Of a DNA stretch of 64,000 bases, positions 26,859 to 29,170 are shown one piece after another. Origin of the DNA: Eledone cirrhosa (lineage: Eukaryota); assembly GCA_964016885.1 (NCBI GenBank), contig OZ024742.1:208134001-208198000 (forward strand), written 5' to 3'. Within the stretch, counting starts at the first letter, position 1, and each line of letters starts with the position of its first letter. The notes beneath the pieces are model-generated. The model ran no database searches. It saw nothing but the letters and a program-made list of their open reading frames with translations, and was not told the DNA's origin. Both the position numbers and the translations under genes were made by a program.

Positions 26859-29170
26859 TAAATGTAAGTATGCATGTATACGTACATACATATATGTATA
26901 CAGACGTACAGTAGCATGCACATATATATATATATATATACATATATAAATACATATGCATACAGGTACACATACATATATGCACGTATCAGTTTAGCGG
27001 CGCTAACGTCGCTTTGTTCGTTTGTAAACAAACTGAACAGCCTGAATTTATGCCATACGGTGTTAAGGCAACCACGTCACCTTTTTGTTCAACACTGACA
27101 CAGGAACGATGTACTAGTTTCAAGCTTGTTAGCTATCATCAGCACCGTTTACCCATCTGCCAGATAGTTGAACGTTCGAAAGTATATACTTTCCTTATGA
27201 AAATTAACGGCTGAGCAGCCTAATTTGCATATTGAGTGAGTTAAATCGGTCAGGCATACCGAAAACGATAAATTGAAACAAAATGAAAACGAAATTTCAT
27301 TTCTCACTCTTAGTATGGCACTTACTTAAATGTAAGTATGCATGTATACGTACATACATATATGTATACAGACGTACAGTAGCATGCACATATATATATA
27401 TATATACATATATACATACATATGCATACAGGTACACATACATATATGCACGTATCAGTTTAGCGGCGCTAACGTCGCTTTGTTCGTTTGTAAACAAACT
27501 GAACAGCCTGAATTTATGCCATACGGTGTTAAGGCAACCACGTCACCTTTTTGTTCAACACTGACACAGGAACGATGTACGAGTTTCAAGCTTGTTAGCT
27601 ATCATCAGCACCTGTATGCATGTGTATGTATATATGTATATATATATATATATATGTGCATGCTACTGTACGTCTGTATACATATAGGTATGTACGTATA
27701 CATGCATACTTACATTTAAGTAAGTGCCATACTAAGAGTGAGAAATGAAATTTCGTTTTCATTTTGTTTCAATTTATCGTTTTCGGTATGCCTGACCGAT
27801 TTAACTCACTCAATATGCAAATTAGGCTGCTCAGCCGTTAAATTTCATAAGGAAAGTATATACTTTCGAACGTTCAACTATCTGGCAGATGGGTAAACGG
27901 TGCTGATGATAGCTAACAAGTACATCGTTCCTGTGTCAGTGTTGAACAAAAAGGTGACGTGGTTGCCTTAACACCGTATGGCATAAATTCAGGCTGTTCA
28001 GTTTGTTTACAAACGAACAAAGTGACGTTAGCGCCGCTAAACTGATACGTGCATATATGTATGTGTACCTGTATGCATATGTATGTATATATGTATATAT
28101 ATATATATATATGTGCATGCTACTGTACGTCTGTATACATATATGTATGTACGTATACATGCATACTTACATTTAAGTAAGTGCCATACTAAGAGTGAGA
28201 AATGAAATTTCGTTTTCATTTTGTTTCAATTTATCGTTTTCGGTATGCCTGACCGATTTAACTCACTCAATATGCAAATTAGGCTGCTCAGCCGTTAATT
28301 TTCATAAGGAATGTATATACTTTCGAACGTTCAACTATCTGGCAGATGGGTAAACGGTGCTGATGATAGCTAACAAGCTTGAAACTAGTACATCGTTCCT
28401 GTGTCAGTGTTGAACAAAAAGGTGACGTGGTTGCCTTAACACCGTATGGCATAAATTCAGGCTGTTCAGTTTGTTTACAAACGAACAAAGCGACGTTAGC
28501 GCCGCTAAACTGATACGTGCTTATATGTATGTGTACCTGTATGCATATGTATGTATATATGTATATATATATATATATATGTGCATGCTACTGTACGTCT
28601 GTATACATATATGTATGTACGTATACATGCATACTTACATTTAAGTAAGTGCCATACTAAGAGTGAGAAATGAAATTTCGTTTTCATTTTGTTTCAATTT
28701 ATCGTTTTCGGTATGCCTGACCGATTTAACTCACTCAATATGCAAATTAGGCTGCTCAGCCGTTAACTTTCATAAGGAAAGTATATACTTTCGAACGTTC
28801 AACTATCTGGCAGATGGGTAAACGGTGCTGATGATAGCTAACAAGCTTGAAACTAGTACATCGTTCCTGTGTCAGTGTTGAACAAAAAGGTGACGTGGTT
28901 GCCTTAACACCGTTCGGCATAAATTCAGGCTGTTCAGTTTGTTTACAAACGAACAAAGCGACGTTAGCGCCGCTAAACTGATACGTGCATATATGTATGT
29001 GTACCTGTATGCATATGTATGTATATATGTATATATATATATATATATGTGCATGCTACTGTACGTCTGTATACATATATGTATGTACGTATACATGCAT
29101 ACTTACATTTAAGTAAGTGCCATACGAAGAGTGAGAAATGAAATTTCGTTTTCATTTTGTTTCAATTTAT
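26859..29170. mobile_element. Hammerhead-bearing tandem array 1 (468-bp monomer), two divergent arms (retrozyme-like)
   Basis: Left arm 26859-27612 (~1.6 units, HHR on - at 27105-27149). Right arm 27611-29170 (~3.3 units, HHR on + at 28353-28397 and 28821-28865). Flanked by (TA)n. Confidence 0.88.
28353..28397 (+). ncRNA. Minimal type I hammerhead of array 1 (representative copy)
   Basis: AACGGTG-CTGATGA-tAGCTaacaAGCTt-GAAA-CTAG-TA-CATCGTT. Confidence 0.85.

Follow-up and report, generated by a model that had tools for sequence, protein, structure and literature searches.

Two arrays in the window, by which we mean the whole 64,000-nucleotide stretch analysed here from a eukaryotic genome of ~3.0 Gb, very probably belong to a non-LTR retrozyme: a type I hammerhead motif in an ORF-less unit of 420-540 nt that was likely copied through RNA by the reverse transcriptase (RT) of a Penelope-like element (PLE) and that likely spread from sources that kept the RNA fold. 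The layout is that of non-LTR retrozymes, with units of a few hundred bp joined head to tail, one type I hammerhead in each, no ORF or LTR, and dispersal at high copy number. The ORF-less unit is closed, its subfamily history is pair-keeping, and its insertions have PLE-type anatomy. This is a new family of a known element type with a known variant pair (U·U at positions 10.1·11.1 of the hammerhead), and its most useful addition is a counted rule by which the two arms of an inverted insertion end one long and one short.

Both window arrays sit in (TA)n and are built head-to-head, minus copies followed by plus copies, rather than as simple tandems. Their parts, in window coordinates, are as follows.

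26859..27612, minus strand: array 1 inverted arm, with a short 3' end (253 nt past the cut site) that abuts (TA)n.
27610..29170, plus strand: array 1 direct arm of 468-nt units, with a long 3' end (312 nt past the cut site) that abuts (TA)n.
29111..29170, plus strand: array 1 tail, ~59 nt between the two fixed 3' ends, containing a predicted hairpin.
56618..59177, minus strand: array 2 inverted arm of 422-nt units, with the long end (275).
59176..61173, plus strand: array 2 direct arm, with the short end (219).
60080-60110, plus strand: example hammerhead core of array 2, with U60077·G60113 in stem I.

The units of array 1 (468 nt) and array 2 (422 nt) are 83% identical over aligned bases. Each contains one type I hammerhead motif, and neither array holds an ORF of at least 150 aa. 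The pattern CTGANGA..GAAA occurs 19 times within the window against 2.5 expected. Folding of circular monomers gave z values of -6.9 and -8.9 for the sense strand and -4.7 and -4.2 for the antisense strand (30 shuffles each), and the tail hairpin of array 1 is predicted in the related family B as well. Two copies of array 1 are damaged: a plus copy at 27903 has an 11-nt deletion in the core, and in a minus copy at 27608 stem I is cut and stem III altered.

The hammerhead domain of array 1, which defines subfamily A1, was read from the sequence as follows.

28329..28415, plus strand: type I hammerhead domain of subfamily A1, also a weak match to Rfam Hammerhead_HH9.
28329-28335/28409-28415, plus strand: distal helix of the A1 domain; middle helices lie between it and stem I.
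28354-28359/28391-28396, plus strand: proximal stem I of the A1 domain.
28360..28390, plus strand: A1 core, comprising CUGAUGA, stem II, GAAA, the palindromic stem III ACUAGU and the GUA triplet.
28419-28437, plus strand: downstream hairpin, with its array 2 counterpart at 60141-60156.

The domain has the type I core CUGANGA / GAAA / UH, and the hammerhead consensus predicts a cut between 28390 and 28391. Stem II of A1 has U10.1·U11.1 at its base and the loop UAACAA. Stem III is an invariant 2 bp closed by a palindromic loop that differs by family (UA, GC or AU, the last in an old family). Loop II and the stem I internal loop are conserved across families. In these two loops and in the layout of the core, the families resemble Hammerhead_HH9 (RF02275) and align to that model, although all score under its gathering score of 52 (18.5 bits, E=0.024, for the A1 domain; 37.7 bits, E=2e-6, for family B). 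At the gathering threshold Rfam has no match in the window, and its top matches at the E-value level are microRNA models that match AT repeats and palindromes. Minimum-energy folds form neither stem III nor the open core. A co-fold of two hammerheads, tried as a test for a dimer ribozyme, was uninformative because it gave a full intermolecular duplex instead.

The initial annotation had proposed that the two arrays differ by structure-preserving changes and that selection acts on the RNA fold. The letters it reported are all present. Stem I is ACGGTG (28354-28359) / CATCGT (28391-28396) in array 1, with G28357·U28393, and ACGTTG (60074-60079) / CAGCGT (60111-60116) in array 2, with U·G at this pair. 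N7 is the sole difference in the 31-nt core; stem II (TAGC-TAACAA-GCTT), GAAA and CTAG are identical, and the distal helix GTTCAAC/GTTGAAC is the same in both arrays. The downstream hairpin, which falls just outside the interval initially annotated, has changed and is still paired (AAGGTGAC/GTTGCCTT at 28419-28437 versus AGCAAC/GTTGCT at 60141-60156). To these the middle helix of stem I adds two further pair-keeping changes, U·G versus A-U and G·U versus A-U. Between the arrays, nine sites of the 87-nt domain (28329-28415) differ. Five of these fall in paired columns and leave every pair intact, an outcome that random placement of the differences matches in ~0.2-0.4% of 200,000 trials. The older state of the downstream hairpin is GGCAAC/GUUGCC, and G·U intermediates persist in older subfamilies. 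All six of its inner pairs are kept, one of them in G-C, G·U and A-U states, and other pairs have passed from A-U to G·U and from C-G to U·G.

The proposal of selection on the RNA fold also holds in a larger alignment and under two controls that take account of relatedness. The alignment, set beforehand as the refuting test, comprised 17 real copies hand-chosen as representatives of the A, C, B and P subfamilies. Both partners change at 11 of its 15 pairs, and pairing holds in 95.7% of cells, a count that overstates support in that the rows are related. All unpaired cells lie at 10.1·11.1. The observed pairing level was reached in 0 of 500 shuffles, and slid controls gave 31-49% pairing. Covariation is present in stems I and II of the type I hammerhead, and none of the 17 rows departs from loop II UAA(C/U)AA or from the shared catalytic letters. 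To allow for the kinship of the rows, comparisons were also simulated at the level of families. Families B and P, which were found without any pairing filter, differ from A by 10 and 16 changes at paired positions and keep 14 of 14 pairs; in the simulation, 10, 16 and 14 substitutions left all 14 pairs intact in 15, 0 and 0 of 200,000 trials.

The second control set changes shared by subfamilies against changes private to single copies, using 342 copies from 143 insertions with ascertainment columns removed. Private changes at paired sites kept pairing in 80 of 318 cases (25%), whereas 8 of 10 shared steps were pair-keeping and 2 pair-breaking, by our parsimony reading of the haplotypes (Fisher p=0.0006; 0.005 without parallel and reverse steps). 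Across insertions the stem I pair is G·U in 61, U·G in 54 and A-U in 19, and other shared pairs stand at C-G 105 / U·G 40, G·U 132 / A-U 12 and A-U 97 / G·U 48. The fold constraint is not absolute, because one outer pair (A-U in 78, U·G in 34 and A·G in 32 of the 143 insertions) passed through an A·G mismatch that was amplified once and later repaired. We considered an amplified U·U intermediate between the G·U and U·G states of stem I and rejected it; among the first 100 matches listed there were 6, against 2 for a C·U control, and it occurs in just 5 of 143 insertions. Alternative stem I states have 442 and 332 genome matches, some still paired, and amount to ~3% of the family, which fits decay after insertion. 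Taken as a reading of the sequences, the pair-keeping stem changes are good evidence for selection on an RNA fold, with one correction to the initial claim: selection acts on source lineages, and inserted copies decay freely.

The paired changes might instead be chance, or neutral hairpin correction of DNA by template switching in quasi-palindromes. The unit is rich in inverted repeats, and the comparison spans just three deep families with related rows, which favours such a view. Hairpin correction would, however, yield Watson-Crick pairs, and the amplified stem states include nine sense-strand G·U and no A·C (binomial ~0.002, our own arithmetic), which fits RNA of this strand and argues against palindrome correction at the DNA level. 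The two strands of stem I also lie 31 nt apart across the core, and neither correction nor chance sits well with private changes that keep pairs only a quarter of the time. We regard this explanation as largely refuted and give it almost no credence.

The U-U opposition at the base of stem II had been cited as kept in both arrays. It is present in both, but the arrays inherited it from one common ancestor, so it counts once and is not independent evidence. The standard 10.1-11.1 pair, usually G-C, is absent from families A and P, which have U·U; the position is C·A or C-G in family C and G10.1-C11.1 in family B. Beyond A, U·U is seen again in P as well as in at least two hammerhead families unrelated to it, and other families show C·A. 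A non-standard pair here is not disqualifying because active natural exceptions are documented (PMC3088659, PMC7229834). Perreault 2011 reported a natural U10.1-U11.1 and called it the most active mispair (PMC3088659), and ~60,000 axolotl retrozyme hammerheads are reported to have U·U at the base of helix II, with 22% cleavage as monomers and far better cleavage as dimers (PMC7229834). The Perreault variant thus has the same U-U in nature and is described as rare, whereas here the pair occurs in >25,000 copies and at least three further families. The G-C, C-G and C·A readings in relatives amount to tolerance for a non-standard pair, which has already been described.

Genome-wide, the exact core of family A has 13,460 matches (reversed control 0), an older loop variant has 12,377 (control 0), and cores without U at 10.1 have 11,383 (control 14). 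The last two counts share a few hundred matches, and related cores number ~36,000. Family P is a 310-nt retrozyme-like unit with the stem III palindrome ACGCGU, and two example loci (L012:1970-2920 and L229) are inverted insertions in (TA)n with a tail of ~30 nt. An old, decayed family with ACAUGU has 88 matches (control 0). In one A1 insertion (L288, G000:C1:319891500-319898500) the four copies have ACAUGU in place of ACUAGU, a two-letter change that keeps the palindrome. Very long arrays of ~30 units or more, made of A1-like and B units, lie at G000:C3:12272000-12292000 and G000:C1:5738000-5752500. Both young A lineages replaced the loop II sequence UAAUAA by UAACAA, and family B has both forms; the change is either parallel or due to recombination.

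Other hammerheads also occur. A frequent short family, whose stem II is TTTC-TAAA-GAAT with a basal U·U, lies at L038, L282, L315, L348 and elsewhere, often as tiny head-to-head pairs. Hammerheads that combine a long stem II with C·A at 10.1·11.1 (L081, L123, L202, L239, L244, L296) probably come from other PLE terminal repeats. The window itself contains two hammerhead-like motifs of other families, at 15591-15650 (minus) and 30726-30800 (plus), each with an apparent extra base after CUGANGA. Searches of the openly accessible literature turned up no description of this retrozyme family.

We mapped the ends of insertions at 184 loci of families A and B, a few of which may be segmental duplicates. 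Two fixed sites ~56-64 nt apart account for 243 of 297 3' ends. There are 93 inverted pairs, 24 of them with an irregular end and 69 scorable, with both ends at fixed sites. One arm is long and the other short in 67 of the 69; two are short-short and none is long-long (p ~4e-18). Both arms of an array insertion generally belong to the same subfamily. No more than two diagnostic letters separate them in 19 of 21 young inversions and in 16 of 20 old ones; among shuffled arm pairs the shares are 34% (young) and 16% (old). The (TA)n target, the inverted 5' copy and the two fixed 3' ends that delimit a tail form a PLE signature, and together with the head-to-head arms and the one-long-one-short rule they support mobilisation by a PLE. 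A tail on one inverted repeat is known from PLEs (PMC3846280, PMC8557442) and has been linked to a pair of internal start sites for the RT and to extension of both strands (PMC11167929). That PLEs mobilise retrozymes has been proposed, with the mechanism undemonstrated in those reports (PMC7229834; bioRxiv 10.64898/2026.07.22.740005).

A young PLE lies in the window itself.

21885-25760, minus strand, with an intact ORF at 22930-25083: young PLE with the Hydra-clade motifs DKT, RW and CxCx5C.

These motifs are as described for the Hydra clade (PMC8557442); Pfam gave no match on the ORF. Many intact 821-aa copies of this active PLE occur genome-wide at 98-99% identity, often inverted or tandem. 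Like the arrays, it has two ends, at ~+46 and ~+134, and in two inverted loci each arm has one of them. The hammerhead present in each of its terminal repeats has a palindromic stem III and a long stem II and differs from that of the arrays. A second, degenerate PLE family lies at 17843-20052 (plus), with ~35-40% protein identity to the first.

The PLE-type tail, inversion and (TA)n targeting would also be found if the arrays were cut-down terminal repeats of an autonomous PLE, expanded by unequal crossing-over, with selection acting in the coding parent, a route proposed in bioRxiv 10.64898/2026.07.22.740005. We consider this improbable. Units close head to tail, in up to 30 or more copies without an ORF; an ORF with RT plus GIY-YIG between repeats is absent; successive ORF-less subfamilies each reached many loci; and the PLE in the window has a different hammerhead. 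PLE ORFs downstream of a unit at two loci (L114, L376) were examined as partners, and both are separate insertions, divided from the unit by (TA)n at a fixed end. Among the loci examined, no autonomous element has a homologous terminal repeat.

Cleavage has left no direct trace in the genome, since truncated 5' ends do not pile up at the cut site (of 334 ends, the two 20-nt bins that flank it hold 10 and 13, and neighbouring bins 8-20). Cut-site chimeras were sought as such a trace; of 39 matches, 30 were inspected, and in most of these the upstream type agrees, so the supposed chimeras are single private changes. The missing peak would suit a fold selected as a binding or packaging scaffold for the PLE enzyme, in which cleavage is slow or matters little and the U·U is the sign of a damped ribozyme. 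So would the non-standard 10.1·11.1 in several families of this genome, the hairpins elsewhere in the unit that likewise keep pairing, and a purified PLE system in which hammerhead cleavage was dispensable, mutants leaving in vitro insertion unchanged (PMC11167929). Yet three families with rewritten stems all retain the catalytic letters and obey the H17 rule (A, U or C, never G), an argument that is partly circular because the search patterns fixed part of the core, and the axolotl U·U hammerhead does cleave, as a monomer and far more as a dimer (PMC7229834). A scaffold without important cleavage is, on balance, unlikely.

For a PLE-copied retrozyme, known systems suggest the following cycle. 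The arrays would be transcribed, and neighbouring hammerheads would cut after GUA (GUU or GUC in families B and C), probably as dimers via the palindromic ACUAGU; a short palindromic helix III and a dimer model were described by Cervera and de la Peña 2014 (PMC4209133). Monomers would be ligated into circles. A PLE enzyme would then nick both (TA)n strands and prime at two sites 56-64 nt apart, each cDNA would extend past the cut site through one to many units, and head-to-head joining of both cDNAs would follow. Linear multimer templates would account for the arrays as well as circles.

We give even odds to a more specific model, in which one PLE ribonucleoprotein primes both nicked (TA)n strands, using for each strand its own site on a single retrozyme RNA, and continues over the ribozyme junction, building tandem and mirror-image arrays at insertion, and in which the U·U/C·A hammerheads form a group missed by standard searches. 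If so, the one-long-one-short rule and the matching arms would be direct genomic evidence of PLE-mobilised retrozyme RNA, and the arrays a fossil record of retrozyme movement. The insertion anatomy is informative about the enzyme that moves animal retrozymes and about whether arrays form at insertion or later, and its two sites yield a testable prediction for the existing purified PLE system. The covariation confirms what is expected of a retrozyme hammerhead; its value lies in a natural mutational series whose amplified subfamilies vary both in stem I (G·U, A-U, U·G and U-A) and at 10.1·11.1 (G-C, C-G, C·A and U·U).

The closest known system is the axolotl retrozyme HHR_Amex2 / Rtz_353 (Cervera and de la Pena 2020, PMC7229834), reported as ORF-less units in tandem that number tens of thousands of copies and each hold a single type I hammerhead, with a stem III of 2 bp, U·U at the base of stem II and PLEs of the same genome as proposed mobilisers. 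Here, by contrast, units are 420-540 nt long, stem III consists of a bare palindrome whose loop has 2 nt, and the head-to-head insertions lie in (TA)n and bear a PLE tail. The axolotl work demonstrated RNA, circles and cleavage; the present family is described from genomic sequence. The hammerhead of the Dolichopoda satellite pDo500 likewise has a conserved core with a C/T change at N7 and compensatory changes in stems I and II, including 10.1/11.1 (PMC2837043); that study describes populations of one satellite, whereas here a succession of mobile subfamilies is preserved with its intermediates in one genome. EN+ PLEs of the Hydra clade (Craig 2021, PMC8557442; Arkhipova 2013, PMC3846280; Frangieh 2024, PMC11167929) are described with (TA)n targets, tandem plus inverted insertions, a tail at one end only and two internal RT start sites. 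The present arrays differ in having no RT-endonuclease ORF and a tail of 56-64 nt, not the 30-40 nt given for those PLEs, and here the one-long-one-short arrangement has been counted.

Several further elements lie in the window. An intact 1141-aa non-LTR retrotransposon ORF (RVT_1, E=8.5e-23) occupies 8878-12303 (plus), and a broken relative lies at 4327-7360 (plus); the C-terminal motif resembles a restriction-like endonuclease. A PIF1 helicase ORF at 34491-35993 (minus) and a second fragment at 49720-50187 (plus) are presumably pieces of Helitrons. A SINE-like repeat at 61195-61420 adjoins array 2 and seems similar to cephalopod SINEs.
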